Source: Eledone cirrhosa (taxonomy: Eukaryota). Taken from it: a stretch of 64,000 nt of DNA. Location of the stretch: the NCBI GenBank assembly GCA_964016885.1, contig OZ024749.1:34100001-34164000 (forward strand), read 5' to 3'. A program made the position numbers and the translations under genes. Shown one piece after another: positions 7,093 through 63,194 of this stretch. How positions within the stretch are numbered: position 1 is the stretch's first letter; each line of letters starts with the position of its first letter. The notes below the pieces were generated by a model, which had not been told where the DNA came from, searched no databases, and saw only the letters and a list, made by a program, of their open reading frames with translations.

Positions 7093-7095
<3 letters not shown>

Positions 7096-7139
7096 ATGAT
7101 TTCTAATGAATGAAACAGTTCTAGTCCTGTAGAATCTCA

Positions 7140-7143
<4 letters not shown>
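7093..7143 (+). mobile_element. Fragment of HHR cassette family 1 between TA tracts
   Basis: tgatgatttctaatgaatgaaacagttctagtcctgtagaatctcatct, matches 7938-7986. Confidence 0.8.
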
Positions 7144-7175
<32 letters not shown>

Positions 7176-7593: not shown

Positions 7594-7624
7594 TATATAT
7601 ATATATATAGTTTTAATATAGATG

Positions 7625-7675
7625 AGATTCTACAGGACTAGAACTGTTTCATACTTTAGAAATCATCAGGAATCT
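7625..7675 (-). ncRNA. Type I hammerhead ribozyme (inverted-arm copy)
   Basis: Reverse complement of 7931-7981 with one stem II change. Confidence 0.8.
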
Positions 7676-7846
7676 GGGTATCAAAAAATAAATATGGTAT
7701 TTATAGGCCTCTTCAGGTGGTAGGAGAGGGTGGGGAGTGGGATGGGTGGAGGTCATTGGTTGATAGAATTCTTTCTGCCTTTGTTACTCTAAATATAAAT
7801 TATAGCTTTAAAGAATTAGCTTTTAATGAATTCCCTTTTCTATCAA

Positions 7847-7908
7847 CCAATGACCTCTACCCATCCCACTCCCCACCCTCTCCTACCACCTGAAGAGACC
7901 TATAAATA
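7847..7908 (+). promoter_or_regulatory. Putative Pol II promoter (CCAAT, CACCC-rich tract, TATAAATA) upstream of the HHR
   Basis: CCAAT 7847-7851, ccccaccc ~7871, TATAAATA 7901-7908, 30 nt before HHR helix I. Confidence 0.45.
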
Positions 7909-7930
7909 CCATATTTATTGTTTGATACCC

Positions 7931-7981
7931 AGATTCCTGATGATTTCTAAAGAATGAAACAGTTCTAGTCCTGTAGAATCT
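7931..7981 (+). ncRNA. Type I hammerhead ribozyme
   Basis: AGATTC CTGATGA tttct-aa-agaat GAAA CAG-ttctagtc-CTG TA GAATCT; 6-bp helix I, full stem III, GUA cleavage after 7975. Confidence 0.9.
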
Positions 7982-8067
7982 CATCTATATTAAAACTGTT
8001 ATACTCTGCTTTGTATTGAGTACCTTACTTACTGTGGTTACCTCCGATTCAACCCGGAGTAACGTAC

Positions 8068-8114
<47 letters not shown>

Positions 8115-9060: not shown

Positions 9061-9254
9061 GATGGGGTGTGGTAAAAAAACCAGGTAGACCATAACCCAC
9101 CAGAGTACTCGACTTAGGGTAGTAGAGTGGTTAATAGGAAAAGAGTCAGGTCCCCGACGGCTGAGCTCCGGCCGTTTCGACAGCTAGATCTCAACGTTCA
9201 GATCTAGCTGTCAAAACGGCCGGAGCTCAGCCTTCGGGGTCCTGACTCTTTTCA
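9061..9254 (-). mobile_element. Fold-back cassette, family 2
   Basis: Palindrome centred ~9195 (gaaaagagtcagg..ctgactcttttc) with tail to the left; (TA)n flanks. Confidence 0.9.
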
Positions 9255-9258
9255 TATA

Positions 9259-9307
<49 letters not shown>

Positions 9308-9309
<2 letters not shown>

Positions 9310-9498
9310 CGAAGGAAATGTGGTAAGGAACCAGGTGGACCATAACGCACCAAAGTACTCAATACTTAGGGTAGTAGAGTGGGTAATAGGAACGAGTATG
9401 ACCCCGACGGCTGAGCTCAAGCCGTTTCGACGGCTAATTCTGGACTCAGAATTAGCCGTCGAAACGACTTGAGCTCAGCCGTCGGGGTCCTACTCGTT

Positions 9499-9501
<3 letters not shown>
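9308..9501 (-). mobile_element. Fold-back cassette, family 2
   Basis: Palindrome centred ~9444; tail contains gtactcaatacttagggtagtagagt (bulged hairpin on minus strand). Confidence 0.9.
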
Positions 9502-9556
<55 letters not shown>

Positions 9557-10850: not shown

Positions 10851-11123
10851 GATTCTCTTTATTTTTCAATTCACATTCCACCGTTGCGAAACTTATTTGG
10901 GTTTCGAGGTTCAAATTCGTCTACAGAACAGGTTTGAATTTCGAAATTTAAATATGTCCAGGAATCATGGCTGTTGCCAATATAAGCTTGTCTTTATTGA
11001 CTTATATCGAGACAGACAAATTGTATTTACTTTAATTAGTTTATTTCATTAATGGCTAACTTTGTCTGTTGCAATATGAACACATTTCGTGTTTATCATA
11101 TATTTTAAATATATATATATATA

Positions 11124-11300
11124 TAGGAAAAGAGTTAGGACCCGACAGCTGAGCTCCGGCCGTTTCGACAGCTAGTTCGGATCTAGCTGTCGAAACGGCC
11201 GGAGCTTCGAGAGTCGGGGACCTGACTCTTTTCCTATTACCCACTCTACGAGTACTCTGGTGCGTTATGGCCCACTTGGTATCTTACCACACCTTCTTTG
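11124..11300 (+). mobile_element. Fold-back cassette, family 2
   Basis: Palindrome centred ~11178; internally deleted tail hairpin (actctacgagtact). Confidence 0.88.
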
Positions 11301-11542: not shown

Positions 11543-11576
<34 letters not shown>

Positions 11577-11582
<6 letters not shown>

Positions 11583-12018
11583 ATGAAATAACAGGAGGCT
11601 GGACTGGTGTAAATCCTTGAAAAGTTTATTATACTATGATCATTTCAATGACCGGGTTCCATATGAATCCGGTGTTATCATCAGGTATTGGAATATAACA
11701 AAGGAATATGTAAAAGGTCTCTGTCTCTGATTTTTCGGACCCATGGCCTTTTACAGATTCCTTTGTTATATTTCAATACCTGATGATAACACCGGATTCA
11801 TATGGAACCCGGTCATTGAAATGATCATAGTATAATAAACCTTTCAAGGATTTACACTAGTCCAGCCTCCTGTTATTTCATTTATAATTAACTCCGTATT
11901 CGCACCACAAACGAAGATGGATGAACTGCACTGCGTTGAGTACTCTTCACAATATTACACCAGGATTGACCATACGGAATGACCAGTTCTATCCAGTGGT
12001 GAACCAACAAACCTAAAG
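11577..12018 (+). mobile_element. Fold-back HHR cassette, family 4 (~140-bp arms plus tail)
   Basis: Arms 11577-11718 and 11745-11886; tail ACTC-CGTA...TGCG-tt-GAGT 11891-11941; (TA)n flanks. Confidence 0.9.
11776..11833 (+). ncRNA. Type I hammerhead ribozyme (mirror copy on minus strand at 11631-11688)
   Basis: atac CTGATGA ..accgg-attc-atat-ggaa-cccggt.. GAAA tgatca TA gtat; palindromic stem III. Confidence 0.8.
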
Positions 12019-12121
12019 ATATATATATATTATATATATATATATCGAGCGTTAAACCAAGATATATCCTCATTGTACTTGTTTGCTGTGTTTTGCGTTT
12101 ACTTTTCACATACATGTGTAA

Positions 12122-13154: not shown

Positions 13155-13582
13155 ATTGTTATACTTTGGGGGGGGGGGGGTAATGTTGCCAATAAGAAGC
13201 ACACGCACCAGTTGCTTTCACTTCAATTTATTATAATAAATTTATAAATTTAGGAATTTATAAATTTCCGGTTGGTTGGTTGGTTCCACAACCAGATGGC
13301 TGTTTATATATTGTCAAAGTTCTTTCGTCACACATTCTATGACCTGTTCAGTGACTGGGGATTCTTTTCTTTGTTTTTGTGCCTCTCCTTTGTTCTGTCC
13401 TACGCCATCTTGTTTCTGTGTGTGTGTTGTGTGCTCAGTCTGCGCATGCGCCACATCCGGGTGTGTCTGTGTGTGTTTATATTCGTTTATTTATTTGTTT
13501 ATTTACATGTTACGGGGTTGTTTGTTCTATGTGCGTGTGTGTTTTCATTTTGTCCTTAATTGTAAGTTGTGATGTTGCTGTT
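13155..13582 (-). mobile_element. 3' UTR / pLTR of the PLE, with variant HHR at 13313-13355
   Basis: Downstream of the GIY-YIG ORF; minus strand gtca CTGAACAG gtca..tgac GAAA gaac TT tgac; GCGCATGCGC and AAGATGGCG motifs upstream of it. Confidence 0.6.
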
Positions 13583-14560
13583 CTACTCATGTTTTCTATT
13601 TAATTTTGGTTGTAATTCTTTTATGTTTATTGCCTCTGTGATTTGTCTAAACATTGCGTCTTTTCTGTGTGTAGATTCTATTTTTATTTCTATGTTCTCT
13701 AATTTACCCTTATGTTCTATGTTAGCATGTTGGTAGAGTACAGATGATTCTTTACTATCTTGAAGGTCTCGCCAGTGTTCATTTATCCGTTCCCCTACAC
13801 TACGAGCTGTCTCACCTATGTACACTATATTTTTATCTCTACATTGTCCTTCAGTACATCTTATGCTATATACTACATTTCTAGTTTTACAGTTAATATG
13901 GGGGATTAATTTACAGGTTATACATTTCTTATCTATACAGGGGAGTCTTTGAAAAGGGTATGTCTTGCTAATAAGTGTTTTTATGGAGGTACCTGGTCTT
14001 TCTACTATCTTAATATTGAGTTTATGTTTATCTAGGGCCCTTCTAAATTTGTAAGCTAATTCACCTCTAGGGGTTGTATCGATGAACATTACACTCTGGT
14101 ATTTATTGCTATCATACCATGAGTTTATTCTATTAGCCTTATTCCTAGTTCTTTCTATTCTATTCCAAAATTTGCTCCTATACAAGGGGTAGGTCCCATT
14201 TGTGTCATTATTTACCATTTTTTCCCATTTGGTTCTGGCTCCTCTATACACTCTGATTTTATCTCTCTGATTGTAACCAGAGAACTGCATATGGTGGATA
14301 AAGTGTTGTATGTGTCTCTCTAGTTCTTCGGGGTTGCACATGCGGGACACGTTTCTCATCACCCGTACCAAATCCGCAATCAGTATGTTGATTTTGGTAT
14401 GGTCCGAAACAGCTGAGTTTCGGTGGATCAGAAATTTGGAAGTCATGGGTTTGGCATAATGGGAATGGAGGATTTGTTTTTTGTTATTAATGGTATCTAA
14501 ACCAGAGCTCTGTGTCTAGTACAGGTAATCGATGGTTGGGGTGTTTGCTTGGGTAGTCTA
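13583..14560 (-). pseudogene. Penelope-like element ORF fragment: RT primer grip/thumb, Cys linker, GIY-YIG endonuclease
   Basis: Frameshifted upstream VTIDYPSKHPNHRLPVLDTELW..HYAKPM, then 287 aa with PCIDKKCITC, NVVYSIRC..YIGETARSVGERINEH..H..EA..I..PKLNR. Confidence 0.92.
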
Positions 14561-17284: not shown

Positions 17285-17344
17285 GTAAAAATATATATAT
17301 GAACTTGCAAACATCTACACGTATATATATATATATATATATAT

Positions 17345-17855
17345 ATAAGTTAAAACAATGAAATAAAAAATCAAGTCATTAGAGATATACTTCACTGCTT
17401 TACGATCGTTTCTAGATGATGATAATATATTGTAGCTATATTTCGTTATTTATGTATGTAAGGCTAGTTACAAAATATCAGACAAAGAGAATATTTACTT
17501 ACATGCATATCACCAACTGTTTTCAAAAGCAATCATTGCTTTTGAAAACAGCTGGTGATATGCATGTTAGTAAATATTCTCTTTGTCTGATATTTTGTAA
17601 CTAACCTTACATAGATAAATAACCAAGTATAGCTACAATGTATTATCATCATCTAGAAACGATCGTAAAGCAGTGAAGTATATCTCTAATGACTTGATTT
17701 TTTTATTTCATTGTTTTAACTTATATCATGACTCTGTTTTCCTTTTAATGTTTTATTGTTTTCCGGGATTTATCTTAACCTACAACATTTTCAACATATG
17801 GATTACATTGAGTTCTTCATGCAGAACAGACCCCACAACTTACCGTGGATATCTC

Positions 17856-17856
<1 letters not shown>
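17345..17856 (+). mobile_element. Near-perfect ~190-bp-arm fold-back cassette with decayed long-stem-II HHR and bulged-hairpin tail
   Basis: Arms 17345-17532 and 17535-17722; ttgctt TTGAAAA cagctggtgata..tatcatcatcta GAAA cgatcg TA aagcag; tail ACTC-TGT..ACA-tt-GAGT 17731-17813. Confidence 0.85.
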
Positions 17857-17934
<78 letters not shown>

Positions 17935-22227: not shown

Positions 22228-22234
<7 letters not shown>

Positions 22235-22660
22235 TGTAATAAACAACATAGTATGTTGGTTAAATTCCTGAAAACTGTAGAGTGCTCAACTAATCGGGCT
22301 GGAAAGTGCCAATCATATATGTAATATAGAATATGCTTCAATCAATCCCGGTTGGAGCTGTATAAATGAAGTAATTCCGTCGGAAAGGTCCAGGAAAAAA
22401 GAGTGCTCTATGTAGGTTACAGAGCTTAATAATTCCGACGGAATTACTTCATTTATACAGCTCCAACCGGGATTGATGGAAGCATATTCTATATTACATA
22501 TATGATTGGCACTTTCCAGCCCGATTAGTTGAGCACTCTACAGTTTTCAGGAATTTAACCAACATACTATGTTGTTTATTACATAACTATTAAGCTCTGT
22601 AACCTACATAGAGCACTCTTTTTTCCTCGACATTTCCGACGGAATTACTTCATTTATATA
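22228..22660 (+). mobile_element. Fold-back cassette, family 5, with circularly permuted ~200-bp arms
   Basis: Right arm 22433-22657 has terminal direct repeat ttccgacggaattacttcatttata; left arm is a permuted reverse complement; hairpin GCTC-TGTA-acc-TACA-ta-GAGC 22594-22614. Confidence 0.85.
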
Positions 22661-22664
22661 TATA

Positions 22665-23162
22665 TGGGCGGCGTGTCACAGCTTGAGATCGGTGTGGAAG
22701 TCGGACCTTCGTAGAGACCTGAAAATCCGCCTCTTCATTGCTGTAGAGGAGTCTGTGCTGCTGTATGGGTCTGGGACTTGGACACTGACCAAGAGACTCA
22801 CTCAGATGGTGGATGGGTGCTACACGAGAATGCTGAGGATGGCTCTGAACATTAATCAGTATACACTGAGGATGAAAAACTCAGAGCTGTATGGGAGCAT
22901 CCCAAAAGTCAGCTCAAAAGTGACACAGAGGAGACTGAGGTTGGCTGGACATGCTCACCGACATCCAGAGTTGACATTGCACTCAGTGCTCCTTTGGGAG
23001 CCCCTACATGGACACACTAGAAGAGGAAGACCAAGGTTAACATATGTTGATGCCCTAAGGACAGACACTGGTCTGTTGGAGATGCAGGATATGGCAGCGA
23101 TAATGAGGGACAGAGACCGCTGGAGAGAACTCGTCCATGGATCTCGGGAATTTTACCCGCCT

Positions 23163-23202
<40 letters not shown>
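22665..23202 (+). pseudogene. 5'-truncated RTE-clade LINE 3' end with (GA)n tail
   Basis: LKIRLFIAVEESVLLYGSGTWTLT..DGCYTRMLRMALNI..RRLRLAGHAHRHPE..RGRP. Confidence 0.92.
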
Positions 23203-24023: not shown

Positions 24024-24034
24024 TATATATATAT

Positions 24035-24262
24035 AGTAATAATAATAAATTTGAAAACTAAAATCCAAAGTGGACTCGATAAGGATAAATATATATCAAA
24101 TATATAAGAACCGTAGAGCAAATATTTATTAAAATAACAGATTAAAGTTTAAGCAAAGAATCGCTGCTTTCACCCTTAACGGGATCTTCTGAAATTGTTT
24201 CAGAAGATCCCGTTAAGGGTGAAAGCAGCGATTCTTTGCTTAAACTTTAATCTGTTATTTTA

Positions 24263-24268
<6 letters not shown>
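24035..24268 (-). mobile_element. Fold-back cassette, family 3 (variant HHR core CAGAAGA)
   Basis: Perfect ~70-bp arms centred ~24196; tail to the left. Confidence 0.88.
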
Positions 24269-24299
<31 letters not shown>

Positions 24300-34852: not shown

Positions 34853-34892
<40 letters not shown>

Positions 34893-34896
<4 letters not shown>

Positions 34897-35090
34897 AACC
34901 AGTAAGACCCCGACAGCTGAGCTCAAGCCGTTTCGACGGCTAATTCTGGACTGAGTCCAGAATTAGCCGTCGAAACGGCTTGAGCTCAGCTGTCGGGGTC
35001 TTACTGGTTCCTATTACCCACTCTACTACCTCAAGTATTGAGTACTTTGGTGCGTTATGGTCCACCTGGTTCCTTACCACATTTCCTTCG

Positions 35091-35092
<2 letters not shown>
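34893..35092 (+). mobile_element. Fold-back cassette, family 2 (perfect 60-bp arms)
   Basis: Centre ggactgagtcc ~34953; GAAA cggct-tgagctc-agctg TC gggg; hairpin 35020-35043. Confidence 0.92.
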
Positions 35093-40959: not shown

Positions 40960-40994
<35 letters not shown>

Positions 40995-40997
<3 letters not shown>

Positions 40998-41228
40998 AAA
41001 TAACAGATTAAAGTTGAAGCAAAGAAAGGCTGCTTTCACCCTTAACGGGATCTTCTGAAATTTAAAAAAAAAAAGATCCCGTTAACGGTGAAAGCAGCGT
41101 TTCTATGCTTAAACTTTAATCTGTTATTTTAATAAATATTTGCTCTATAGTTTTATATATTTTATATATATATTATCCTTATCGAGCTCTCTTCAGATTT
41201 TAGTCTTCACATTTATTATTACTATTAT
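40995..41228 (+). mobile_element. Fold-back cassette, family 3
   Basis: Arms aaaataacagattaaag../..ctttaatctgttatttt; tail GCTC-TA..TA-tc-GAGC 41142-41187. Confidence 0.85.
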
Positions 41229-41293
41229 AATATATATATATATATATAGTGAAGAAACATAAGTCAATTGCATGAACTCATAATCCTTTATTT

Positions 41294-45580: not shown

Positions 45581-45765
45581 ATAGAAAAAGAGTCAGGACC
45601 CCAACGGCTGAGCTCCGGCCGTTTCGATAGCTAGATCCGAACTGTTCGGATCTAGTTGTCGAAACGGCCGGAGCTCAGCCGTCGGTGTCCTGACTCTTTT
45701 CCTATTACCGACTCTACTACCCTAAGTATTGAGTGTTTTATGGTCCACCTGGTATCTTACCAGAC
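45581..45765 (+). mobile_element. Fold-back cassette, family 2
   Basis: Centre tccgaactgttcgga ~45643; tail actctactaccctaagtattgagt. Confidence 0.9.
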
Positions 45766-52323: not shown

Positions 52324-52356
<33 letters not shown>

Positions 52357-52360
<4 letters not shown>

Positions 52361-52548
52361 AAGTATAACCCCGACGGCAGAGCTCAAGCCGTTTCGACGG
52401 CTATTTCTGTCCAGAAATAGTCGTCGAAACGGCTTGAGCTCTGCCGTCGGGGACATACTTTTTCCTATTACCCACTCTACTACCCTAAGTATTGAGTACT
52501 CTGGTGCATTATGGTGTATCTGGTTCCTTACCACACACCTCCTTCGTT
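52357..52548 (+). mobile_element. Fold-back cassette, family 2
   Basis: Centre ttctgtccagaa ~52410; full tail with bulged hairpin. Confidence 0.9.
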
Positions 52549-53100: not shown

Positions 53101-54144
53101 AATTGTTTCTACTTTTGGCACAAGGCCAGCAATTACCCAGTACATTACTGCTACTTTATTTTATCGACCCCGTAAGGATGAAAGGCAAAGTCAACGTCGG
53201 CGGGATTTGAACTCAGACCGTAAAGGGACGTAACTATGCTGGAAAGCACGGCGTCCGACTCTCTACCGATACTGCCAATCCACCGCCCTAACATGGCGTC
53301 CGACTCTCTACAGATACTGCCAATCCACCGCCCTAACATGGCGTCCGACCCTCTACAGATACTGCCAATCCACCGCCCTAACATGGCGTCCGACTCTCTA
53401 CCGATACTGCCAATCCACCGCCCTAACATGGCGTCCGACCCTCTACCGATACTGCCAATCCACCGCCCTAACATGGCGTCCGACCCTCTACCGATACTGC
53501 CAATCCACCGCCCTAACATGGCGTCCGACCCTCTACAGATACTGCCAATCCACCGCCCTAACATGGAGTCCGACCCTCTACAGATACTGCCAATCCACCG
53601 CCCTAACATGGCGTCCGACCCTCTACCGACACTGCCAATCCACCGCCCTAACATGGAGTCCGACCCTCTACAGATACTGCCAATCCACCGCCCTAACATG
53701 GCGTCCGACCCTCTACCGATACTGCCAATCCACCGCCCTAACACGGCGTCCGACCCTCTACCGATACTGCCAATCCACCGCCCTAACATGGCGTCCGACC
53801 CTCTACCGATACTGCCAATCCACCGCCCTAACATGGCGTCCGACCCTCTACCGATACTGCCAATCCACCGCCCTAACATGGCGTCCGACCCTCTACCGAT
53901 ACTGCCAATCCACCGCCCTAACATGGAGTCCGACCCTCTACAGATACTGCCAATCCACCGCCCTAACATGGCGTCCGACCCTCTACCGATACTGCCAATC
54001 CACCGCCCTAACATGGCGTCCGACCCTCTACAGATACTGCCAATCCACCGCCCTAACATGGCGTCCGACCCTCTACCGATACTGCCAATCCACCGCCCTA
54101 ACATGGAGTCCGACCCTCTACCGATACTGCCAATCCACCGCCCT
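53101..54144 (-). mobile_element. Family A SINE whose 45-bp 5' head is amplified ~20x in tandem
   Basis: Unit acatggcgtccgaccctctaccgatactgccaatccaccgcccta from ~53247 to 54144, contiguous with SINE body 53101-53246. Confidence 0.95.
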
Positions 54145-54159
54145 ATACTTCAACATTAA

Positions 54160-54381
54160 TAATGGTTTCTTATATAGGCACAAGGCCAGTAATTTTGCGG
54201 GAGGGGAAAGTCGATTAAATCGACCCCAGTGCGTGACTGGTACTTTATTTTATCGACCACATAAGGATGAAAGGCAAAGTTAACCTCGGCGGGATTTGAA
54301 CTCAGACCGTAAAGGGCCCTAACTCTATGCTGCAAAGCATAGTGTCTGACCCTCTACAGATACTGCCAATCCACCGCCCTC
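54160..54381 (-). mobile_element. Family A SINE (long-tail variant)
   Basis: TSD atacttcaa(c/g)attaat at 54145 and 54382. Confidence 0.9.
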
Positions 54382-60989: not shown

Positions 60990-61067
60990 TATATATGTAT
61001 AACAATATGTATATATATATATATATATATATTTAAAAGAATAGAGGTGTAACACACGAGTTATGAT

Positions 61068-61577
61068 ATATTGGTAAAAGGAAAAGAAAATGCTGACAAA
61101 TTGTTCCCAGTGAAAAATTGTTTAATTAGGTATAAGTAAAAATTTGTAATAGTATTGATTAGTATTCAGTTATGGTTTTAAGTTTTTACCGGTTGCGCAT
61201 TTCTAATGCTTTTCAAAAATAATTTTGAGATAGAGCTCCCGTGATGTTTGCTCTAATCTGATTAGTTTTGGAAATTCTACCTGTTTTATGTAAAAAAAGT
61301 GGCTCCAGATGTATGAAAAAATTCTTGTGGTCAAAACAATTTTGATTGGTCGGTAGAGGTCATGTGAATGTAAAAAATTGATTTTGCGCCAAATGTAGGT
61401 TTGTCTCGGCTGATTGAGAAGTCACTGAAAAATAAGTCTTTCAAGACAAATATGTGTGTTAGTAGTAGTAGTAGTAGTAGTAGTAGTAAAGAGGTTCGTT
61501 GTTGTGATAATGGTCAGCAGGATGTGTGTGCGAACCGCAGCCTGCTGACAGGTCAACAGTTCAGATGCCTATTAAGA

Positions 61578-61642
<65 letters not shown>

Positions 61643-62880
61643 CAGAGTAATTCGTGGTAGAGGGATCGGTCAGTAGGAATGTGTCTGTACGCGTGTGGAG
61701 GATATTTTAACATGTTAAAAGATATTTTTCAGCTCTTGTCTTATACGGAGAAGTGTGTGTGTGTGTGTGTGTGTGTGTGTCTCTTTGTATGTTAATGTAT
61801 GCGTGTGTATGTGTGTGTGTATATATGTGTGTGTGTGTGTGTGTGAATGTGTGGGTGTGGGGGTGGACCAGTATTTTTGTGATACTGGTAAAAATGGTGT
61901 ACATTATTCGATATTTTCAGTAAAAACGATTCTCTCAATAGAACATCAAAAACCTTAATAACAAAAGGTGTGAAATGATATATAGTATTGTCATAACACC
62001 AAGGTGTGTGTGAGTGTCCAGATTGTACGTACTGCAAGGGGAATCCATTAGGCCTTGCCGTATTGGAATACTTGTGTACAAATATGTATCTGCCCATCAG
62101 TGTGCAATGCATGTGTGCGTATAGGTATGTGTGTGTGTAGGCACGTTTATATCTATAGACATCAAAAGGTATGCAAATTTGTGTATATTTGTGTTGCACC
62201 ATAGAACATGTGTGTTTATGTATGTCATTGTGTTTATATGTGGATAGAGATGTATGCTGATGTAGGTATGTATGTTGACGTGTGTATGTTGTGGGTTCGT
62301 CTTAGGGAGAAGTGTTTAGACGGGGTCCGTATTTGTTAATAAAGTGAGATTCCTTGCTGATGCGCTGGGTGTGGGTGGCATTATCTTTAAATTTGTAGAG
62401 GGGAAAGATTCTGAAGTTGGGATGATTTTGGGCGGCACAGGTATCAATGTGTTCACTCAGTGGTATTTTCCTGTATTCCCGTATTCTAATTTGGGATCTA
62501 TGGACAGTCATGCGTTGGCGGAGGCTGTTTTTGGTCTGGCCTATGTATTGTTCTCGACAACCTGAGCAAGTTAATACATATATTAGATTTTCTGATGCGC
62601 ATGTGAAATTGTGTTTTACTATAAAACGTTGTCCTTCTTTGAAATAGAATTCCGAACCCTTAAAACAGGTAGAATTTCCAAAACTAATCAGATTAGAGCA
62701 AACATCACGGGCGCTCTATCTCAAAATTATTTTTGAAAAGCATTAGAAATGCGCAACCGGTAAAAACTTAAAACCAAAACTGAATACTAACCAATACTAT
62801 TACTAATTTTTACTTATACCTAATTAAACTATTTTTCACTGGGAACAATTTGTCAGCATTTTCTTTTCCTTTTACCAATA
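61068..62880 (-). mobile_element. 5'-truncated Penelope-like element with inverted pLTR (~220-bp terminal inverted repeat)
   Basis: 61068-61288 is the reverse complement of 62661-62880; GIY-YIG domain inside; TA flanks. Confidence 0.9.
62302..62646 (-). pseudogene. PLE GIY-YIG endonuclease domain (Neptune-like, CCHH)
   Basis: YFKEGQRFIVKHNFTCASENLIYVLTCSGCREQYIGQTKNSLRQRMTVHRSQI..LSEHIDTC..RISKESHFINKYGPRLN. Confidence 0.92.
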
Positions 62881-62887
62881 TATATAT

Positions 62888-63112
62888 ATAAATGAAGTAT
62901 TTCCGTCGGAAAGGTACAGGAAAAAAGAGTGCTCTATGTAGGCTACAGAGCTTATTAGTTATGTAATAAACAACATAAGATAATTATTTCATTTACCAGT
63001 GGTTTCTTGAAGGCAGATGTTATGTCTGTCTTCAGTCGTCAGAATGAATAAATATTTATTCATTCTGACTGAAGACAGACATAACATCTGCCTTCAAGAA
63101 ACCACATAACTA
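62888..63112 (-). mobile_element. Fold-back HHR cassette sharing the family 5 tail
   Basis: Tail matches 22570-22657; palindrome centred ~63053. Confidence 0.85.
62990..63046 (-). ncRNA. Type I hammerhead ribozyme
   Basis: catt CTGACGA ctgaagacaga-cataaca-tctgccttcaa GAAA cca-c-tgg TA aatg. Confidence 0.82.
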
Positions 63113-63194
63113 TATCAGCAATTATCAGTTTACACACACAGACACAACCTCCCCCCCCCCCCTCCCCCCACACACACACATTCTCATTTTAGCA

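Follow-up and report, generated by a model that had tools for sequence, protein, structure and literature searches.

The palindromic insertions of Hydra-clade Penelope-like elements (PLEs) in the Eledone cirrhosa genome follow a rule in which each end lies 2–7 nt before a hairpin of its own, one end per hairpin, and this hairpin is a specific cis-element kept across the Hydra clade. The association of ends with a hairpin was seen in a 64,000-nt stretch of the assembly (GCA_964016885.1, contig OZ024749.1, positions 34,100,001 to 34,164,000; hereafter the window) and is confirmed here as real and general, genome-wide. Programmed twin priming is the likely origin of the ends: a single RNA would be primed by both sides of a break in (TA)n, each immediately 5′ of a separate protein-bound hairpin. 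The evidence for this is genomic throughout, and from it we infer protein binding and priming.

Identity of the Elements

The ORF of family 1 is 714–715 aa long in 14 of the 16 loci fetched and carries RT motifs followed by C-terminal GIY-YIG-type endonuclease motifs (read by eye). The Hydra clade is characterized in PMC8557442 by an RWK-type motif, DKT, a CxCX5C linker, CxxC and CxH around E/N, the lack of CCHH, and (TA)n targets. Translation of family 1 gave RWR, a motif of the RWK type, DKT in place of DKG, the CxCX5C linker, and CxxC and CxH around conserved E and N, with no CCHH, so that each sequence feature given there for the clade is present; the Neptune/Nematis features, a CX2-5CxxC linker with CCHH, are absent. 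The full check covered family 1 alone. RWR is present also in families 2 and 3, and families 2, 3, C7, C8, C23 and the one named for its 17.3-kb element lead into the same kind of ORF N-terminus. The insertion target, (TA)n, and a hammerhead-like motif in the pLTR (found by pattern reading) are likewise Hydra-type features; Rfam gave no match in the window at gathering score, nor in six loci at E<=1. On these features the palindromes are insertions of Hydra-clade Penelope-like retrotransposons, which bears out the preliminary description of them as Penelope-like with a one-sided tail. Genome-wide, family 1 has dozens of near-identical open ORFs (~92% to the query), and with so many of them the family is probably still active. 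The 3′ region of intact family 1 copies (L292:3640-5001) enters a mixed (TA)/(TG) microsatellite of more than 1 kb, and the element may itself spread microsatellites.

Table 1. Positions of the elements and their parts within the window.
Feature	Position	Strand	Remarks
Family 1 element	7609–8068		Head-to-head palindrome within (TA)n; 71-nt extension on right side only
Family 1 inverted tail-less arm	7609–7768	-	Outer end is proximal site P and adjoins (TA)n
Family 1 direct arm (pLTR)	7759–7997	+	Extends ~80 nt further 5′ than inverted arm; arms joined in a 10–14 nt overlap near 7759–7768
Family 1 TATA-like box	7901–7908	+	~25–30 nt ahead of the family's common 5′ stop; candidate transcription start
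Family 1 type I hammerhead-like motif	7932–7980	+	By-eye reading against the consensus; core positions 7937, 7956; cut predicted to follow 7975
Family 1 bulged hairpin H1	8003–8021	+	Starts 5 nt past P; ACTC 8003–8006, UU bulge 8016–8017, GAGT 8018–8021
Family 1 one-sided tail (H1 + spacer)	7998–8068	+	Terminates at distal site D
Solo family 1 copy	7094–7145	+	Ends at secondary P site; no tailed partner
Family 4 P/D palindrome	11576–12022	+	Arm end 11888; H1 11891–11941
17.3-kb family P/D palindrome	17343–17857	+	Arm end 17726; H1 17731–17813
Family 5 palindrome	22228–22656	+	Arm end 22590; hairpin 22594–22614
Family 2 P/D palindrome	34892–35092	+	Arm end 35014; H1 35020–35043
Family 3 P/D palindrome	40988–41229	+	Arm end 41139; H1 41142–41187
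Family 2 P/D palindrome	9067–9257	-
Family 2 P/D palindrome	9308–9503	-
Family 2 P/D palindrome	11123–11292	+
Family 2 P/D palindrome	45581–45765	+
Family 2 P/D palindrome	52353–52548	+
Family 3 P/D palindrome	24030–24270	-
Family 5 element near 62888	62887–63115	-	Partner arm probably carries internal deletion

Family 5 (window 22228–22656; loci L092–L120) forms ~190-nt head-to-tail repeats with two hairpins per unit and no clear hammerhead, and is possibly a non-autonomous unit mobilised by Hydra proteins. Directly past the family 5 tail, an open frame (22587–23165, +) has motifs resembling those near the C terminus of the reverse transcriptase in RTE-type LINEs. A further family is represented by an inverted pair (61062–61288 and 62661–62886) whose tail is short and whose stem is atypical; the 62888 element breaks into its right end. 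At 53151–54283 there is a tandem array with a ~33-nt unit related to an abundant SINE-like repeat.

A Bulged Hairpin Next to the Tail-less Ends

Arm ends in the window were determined by exact outward pairing of the two arms. Six palindromes had been described as having arms that stop just upstream of an RCTC motif, and the positions agree within a few bases, with gaps of 5, 5, 2, 2, 4, and 3 nt between arm end and hairpin in families 1, 2, 3, 4, 17.3-kb, and 5, respectively (Table 1). In family 1, the end at 7997 equals the 7996 of the preliminary description plus one T common to (TA)n. The element at 62888, singled out there as an exception with a shorter arm, is probably none: its partner arm seems to have an internal deletion of ~35 nt, and the last 9–10 nt of matching sequence fall at the usual site near 63114 (a match too short to be proof).

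For the genome-wide check, 140 evenly spaced 10-kb stretches were sampled (1.46 Mb including the window), to which a targeted sample of 150 loci from five family searches was added; counts for family 2 come from the even sample and incidental loci. Ends were placed against one template per family, leaving out 169 that could not be aligned and 127 that did not abut (TA)n, and the distal class was restricted beforehand to ends no more than 25 nt from the tail end of the reference. For ten families taken together, 158 tail-less ends were so placed; 149 of them lie 0–12 nt before the hairpin, hereafter H1, and 129 lie 2–7 nt before it. The tail-less junction is, as had been proposed, an internal site linked to the hairpin. 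Palindromes of the even sample adjoin (TA)n directly at one end only in 136 cases and at both ends in 5. When the palindromes with (TA)n at one end were clustered without regard to family, and 6 of the 81 clusters were dropped as self-pairing artefacts, the motif was present at the arm end in 22 of the remaining 75, compared with 0–1 of 75 for equally large segments at five other offsets and 0.3 in shuffled tails. The strict motif is absent from 53 of the 75 clusters, a Neptune-like family among them.

The motif is made up of RCTC, an upper stem, a loop, a 2-nt U-N bulge, and GAGY, with an interior of 11 to 85 nt. Above the 2-nt 3′ bulge, where the search required no upper stem, 69 of 81 positions pair, as against 20–42 in other registers, and the changes between families are compensating U-A/C-G swaps; the secondary structure is thereby shown by covariation. 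In comparisons between families, sense-strand juxtapositions in the upper stem are G-U in 9 cases and A-C in 3, a bias in favour of a hairpin acting at the RNA level. The folding stability of the region is unremarkable in three of the four strands folded (z -0.4 to -1.6), and family 5 has z -4.2. The hammerhead cut site was considered as an anchor of the ends and rejected, given that the distance from predicted cut to P ranges from ~20 to ~60 nt across families (by eye), while the distance from P to H1 stays at 2–5 nt across those same families.

A Second Hairpin Beyond the Tail

Full-length copies have a leader in which the hammerhead, site P, H1, a spacer, site D, a second hairpin (H2), and the ATG follow one another. 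The tail, which ends at D, is H1 plus spacer. Of 252 placed tail ends in ten families, 250 lie 0–12 nt before H2 and 228 lie at 2–7 nt. The H1–H2 distance in these families is 67–165 nt and tail lengths are about 60–165 nt, varying because H1 itself varies in length. H2 was first seen just past the tail end in read-through copies of families 4, 5, 17.3-kb, C8, and C10; it was then predicted for further families before inspection and tested by pattern search. In family 2 it was found 3 nt past the modal D, with 413 pattern matches (0 in the reversed control) and the same spacer in most of the 100 matches listed; in family 3 it also lies 3 nt past the modal D (506 matches), and in C7 and C23 it lies 3–7 nt past D (21 and 20 matches). 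Copies fetched from the families with a predicted H2 contain the bulged partner strand and the ORF. The same read-through search in family C27 gave no match. The H2 of family 1 is a variant, a short stem with a swapped pair and no bulge, 6–7 nt past D, and occurs in full-length copies only. Short insertions do not reveal H2 because it is never copied into them.

For family 1, 14 of 16 loci have a tail that runs on into the ORF, with 44 nt between tail end and ORF, and the same is seen in families 2, 3, 17.3-kb, C7, C8, and C23. The suggestion that one of the two junctions is made from the RNA's 3′ terminus is therefore not supported: in full-length copies the tail continues through H2 into the ORF, and both junctions are internal. 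Every junction has 0–4 nt in common with (TA)n, and both ends share a U, UA, or UAU match with the target, by which the precise base is selected. Matches that abut the hairpin are nevertheless passed over. In family 1, a 4-nt TA match touching H1 is skipped and a 1-nt match 5 nt away is used, and in C8 a better match abutting H1 is likewise skipped; in family 1 a longer TA match, 12 nt ahead of H1, also serves as a secondary P site.

Pairing of Ends and Lengths of Arms

In the even sample, the 13 reference families contributed 103 head-to-head pairs, comprising 83 P+D, 4 P+P, 2 D+D, and 14 that were unclassifiable. Solo copies in this sample end at D in 48 cases and at P in 41, and since the two are about equally frequent, independent choice of ends would give at most 50% P+D; the 83 of 89 classifiable pairs depart from this with p about 1e-18. 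With solo P and solo D copies both common, only one end is left by many events, and at least five apparent P solos have an inverted D stub of 20–34 nt.

Centres could be mapped on non-palindromic references in 134 of 177 pairs. Of these, 85 are symmetric within 20 nt, 27 have a longer P arm, and 22 a longer D arm, while the D arm begins inside the tail in 9. The corresponding counts for the 63 resolved pairs of the even sample are 42, 15, and 6, and in 6 of the 15 whose P arm reaches more than 20 nt further 5′, the D arm stays within the tail and the two have nothing in common (among the 83 P+D pairs, 10 have a D arm that starts near or inside the tail). The proposal that second-strand synthesis terminates at the hairpin is contradicted by these 15 pairs, including the 6 without overlap, and by solo tail-less copies being as frequent as solo tailed ones: a P arm with sequence missing from its D arm is not a second strand copied from it. 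Neither arm being copyable from the other, both are best read as first-strand products.

Within an insertion, both arms belong to a single subtype. Divergence between them is lower than to other arms (0.060 vs. 0.157 in family 2, 0.042 vs. 0.101 in C8), and their 5′ ends coincide in 86 cases, compared with a mean of 66 and a maximum of 82 in within-family permutations. Same subtype and coinciding ends point to a single RNA as template, or at the least to a single source locus. Among rare variants in family 2, 6 are common to both arms and 77 occur on a single arm. The agreement in subtype might also arise if each cell had a single active source locus, or if the arms underwent conversion early on. 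Copying of a single palindromic master as a whole was rejected, as the palindrome centres differ between copies.

Families without the recognizable hairpin, Neptune-like and others, have the same P+D asymmetry, with 12 P+D pairs in the even sample, which indicates that the hairpin is not required by all PLEs and that a two-site logic extends more widely. The Neptune-like family has a short AATAT-CG context that is alike at both sites. In the window, a 5′-truncated PLE of another clade, with a Neptune/Nematis-like linker and GIY-YIG (13155–14515, -), ends at the tail-less site of its own family, which is without the RCTC hairpin. Its ORF (13583–14515) has the CX2-5CxxC linker of the Neptune/Nematis type, and a Pfam search of this 13.6–14.5 kb ORF gave no match.

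The Common 5′ Stop

Arms of families 1, 2, and 3 have 5′ hot spots ~65–80 nt before H1 and 25–30 nt past a TATA-like stretch. A non-templated G precedes the stop, downstream of that stretch, in truncated arms of families 1–3 (at 34953 in the window, for example), with counts by eye of 4 of 6 for family 1 and 7 of 15 for family 3 (p 0.006 vs. 25%). A non-templated G is the signature of a copied cap. The short palindromes are thus probably copies of the first bases of a pLTR-initiated mRNA, the stop being its capped start. An intron acceptor at the same position, as described for D. virilis Penelope (PMC4209133), is the alternative. The family 2 hammerhead (L385–L389; window 34953–35000) appears to have a degenerate core and a long loop II enclosing the common 5′ stop, so that short copies would lack half of the ribozyme.

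Hairpins in Other Organisms

Of 78 Hydra-like loci fetched from metagenomes, 54 had enough upstream sequence, and before the ORF 30 of these have two hairpins, 12 have one, and 12 have none. As controls, ORF interiors and the reverse strand each gave 0 cases with two hairpins, and shuffled sequence gave 0.02. The spacer between the two is 36–59 nt, and in the register test H1 scored 54 pairs of 58 and H2 scored 41 of 56. Among 20 partial copies at these loci, 7 end 0–5 nt before H1 and 5 end 1–4 nt before H2. Published consensi carry the motif as well. Among the five records of File S7 of PMC8557442 whose ends were examined, it is visible but unremarked in three: twice ahead of the ATG in Hydra-1_Ajap, in Hydra-2_Ajap, and in the record preceding Hydra-1_Obim, by file order probably Hydra-2_Amil. 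Of the other two, Hydra-1_Crog has an imperfect version and Hydra-1_Obim no evident one. The hairpins are an exact marker of Hydra element ends for curators.

Proposed Mechanism and Alternatives

In programmed twin priming, the RT protein would bind H1 and H2, whose structure is supported by covariation, on one RNA. The element's protein would cut the (TA)n tract and both DNA ends would then prime reverse transcription, one pairing with U, UA, or UAU 2–7 nt before H2, its counterpart in the same way ahead of H1; the positions and the one-of-each use of these sites are observed, and hairpin-proximal priming would account for them. Support for this step comes from PAc, the Poseidon PLE of Anolis, where two internal RT starts mapped in vitro bracket the tail and both strands are extended (Frangieh et al. 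2024; PMC11167929). Both cDNAs would extend toward the 5′ end of the same template, which would need strand displacement or a P copy made first. They would stop at a common point, often the probable capped start, or independently, and the D copy would at times stall before or near P. The two cDNA 3′ ends would then be joined head to head via short homology or fold-back, and the product would be the palindrome that is seen, with its H1-plus-spacer tail on one side only. A dimer with two active sites on one RNA would be the simplest way to enforce one P and one D. A bolder version, to which we give about one chance in three, holds that double TPRT is obligatory and RNA-programmed in Hydra-clade PLEs: the tandem bulged hairpins would load two telomerase-like RT active sites onto one RNA, both ends of a double-strand break would be primed in fixed registers, and the tail would be a ruler between the loading sites. 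On this view the tail and inverted pLTR of all endonuclease-bearing PLEs would stem from the same two-site logic, with other RNA motifs.

The same ends could conceivably be made on DNA, if the GIY-YIG endonuclease cut a transposition intermediate or extruded hairpin just 5′ of H1 or H2 and the ends were points of cleavage or resolution. Craig et al. ascribe the tail to EN-mediated resolution (PMC8557442), earlier work cited in the PAc paper found the tail to be required for EN recognition of plasmid DNA (PMC11167929), and the symmetric class (85 of 134) could arise from a folded-back duplex. We nevertheless regard this as unlikely: the excess of G-U over A-C juxtapositions favours RNA, the U, UA, or UAU common to both ends and target is as expected of priming, non-overlapping P and D arms are incompatible with one folded-back duplex, and the PAc sites were mapped as RT starts (PMC11167929). 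Processing of the transcript just 5′ of H1 or H2, followed by ordinary 3′-end TPRT on two RNA species, would predict the same end positions and similar solo frequencies, and RNA-seq read ends coincide with the PAc start sites (PMC11167929). It is a somewhat poorer candidate still, as two freely mixed RNAs would give P+D in at most half of pairs, and a 3′ extension of the PAc RNA left the product unchanged (PMC11167929).

Strict asymmetry, arms of the same subtype, and near-perfect palindrome centres, all observed, are what would be expected if a single cDNA from the tail end folded back and its second strand halted at the protein-bound hairpin, and self-priming has been suggested for PLE palindromes (PMC3846280). 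Such a route leaves no room for a tailed arm shorter than its partner. Among the 134 resolved pairs, however, 27 have the longer arm on the P side and 9 have arms without overlap, and neither solo P copies nor a second hairpin behind D would be foreseen; we hold it to be quite improbable as the source of the ends, and fold-back may serve as the joining route for some palindrome centres. Finally, the ends might lie at the best local TA match through microhomology alone, with the hairpins kept for control of translation or of the ribozyme. The 0–4 nt shared at every junction and the secondary family 1 site agree with this, but the better matches touching H1 that are skipped in family 1 and C8, and a 2–7 nt rule holding at two sites, in ten families with different H1–H2 distances, and in other organisms, make it very improbable indeed.

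Comparison With Known Systems

The origin of inverted pLTRs and of the one-sided tail is posed as an open question in published work on PLEs. A search of openly accessible literature, outside the early Penelope work, turned up no account of hairpins in duplicate or of one site being used strictly per end; the words "hairpin" and "palindrom" do not occur in the main text of PMC8557442, and the part consulted of a preprint has nothing on end formation (bioRxiv 10.64898/2026.07.22.740005). The tail and two internal start sites are already known. What appears to be new is that an RNA element, duplicated and found clade-wide, marks both sites, and that P+D pairing is enforced. As in the families described here, the Hydra clade has tandem and inverted pLTRs and a one-sided tail, given as 30–40 bp, in contrast to about 60–165 nt here (PMC8557442). 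PAc resembles our elements in that its two internal starts bracket the tail downstream of the hammerhead at an AT-rich target, both strands are cut and extended, and a dimer is predicted (PMC11167929). It differs in belonging to another clade, in having a single AC-rich stem-loop with no duplicated motif described in that text, and in showing in vitro no start-site difference between strands, whereas here every site comes with a hairpin copy of its own and the two ends use different sites (PMC11167929). Read-through copies in E. cirrhosa, like PAc, have both borders of the tail internal to the template RNA.

In LINE-1 twin priming, both target ends prime on one RNA, the first at the poly(A) end and the second at a chance internal site, and the cDNAs are joined head to head by microhomology, giving an inversion without duplication. 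The non-overlapping pairs seen here look alike. Our elements work in a similar way but depart from the L1 form: each of the two sites is internal and at a fixed position, their joint use is usual, and most copies overlap, forming a palindrome. In telomerase RNA, a template-boundary stem and TRBD-binding stems are present, and a protein-bound stem sets the template register. The boundary stem of telomerase halts copying from the 5′ side of the template, while the hairpin here is 3′ of the start. If programmed twin priming is correct, it would explain the long-puzzling one-sided tail of Penelope-like elements and the filling of genomes with palindromes of 200–500 bp, which would be abundant because the signals lie at the mRNA 5′ end as well as in the 3′ pLTR. 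Twin priming would then exist, beside LINE-1, in a second form that is programmed and belongs to an RT related to telomerase.
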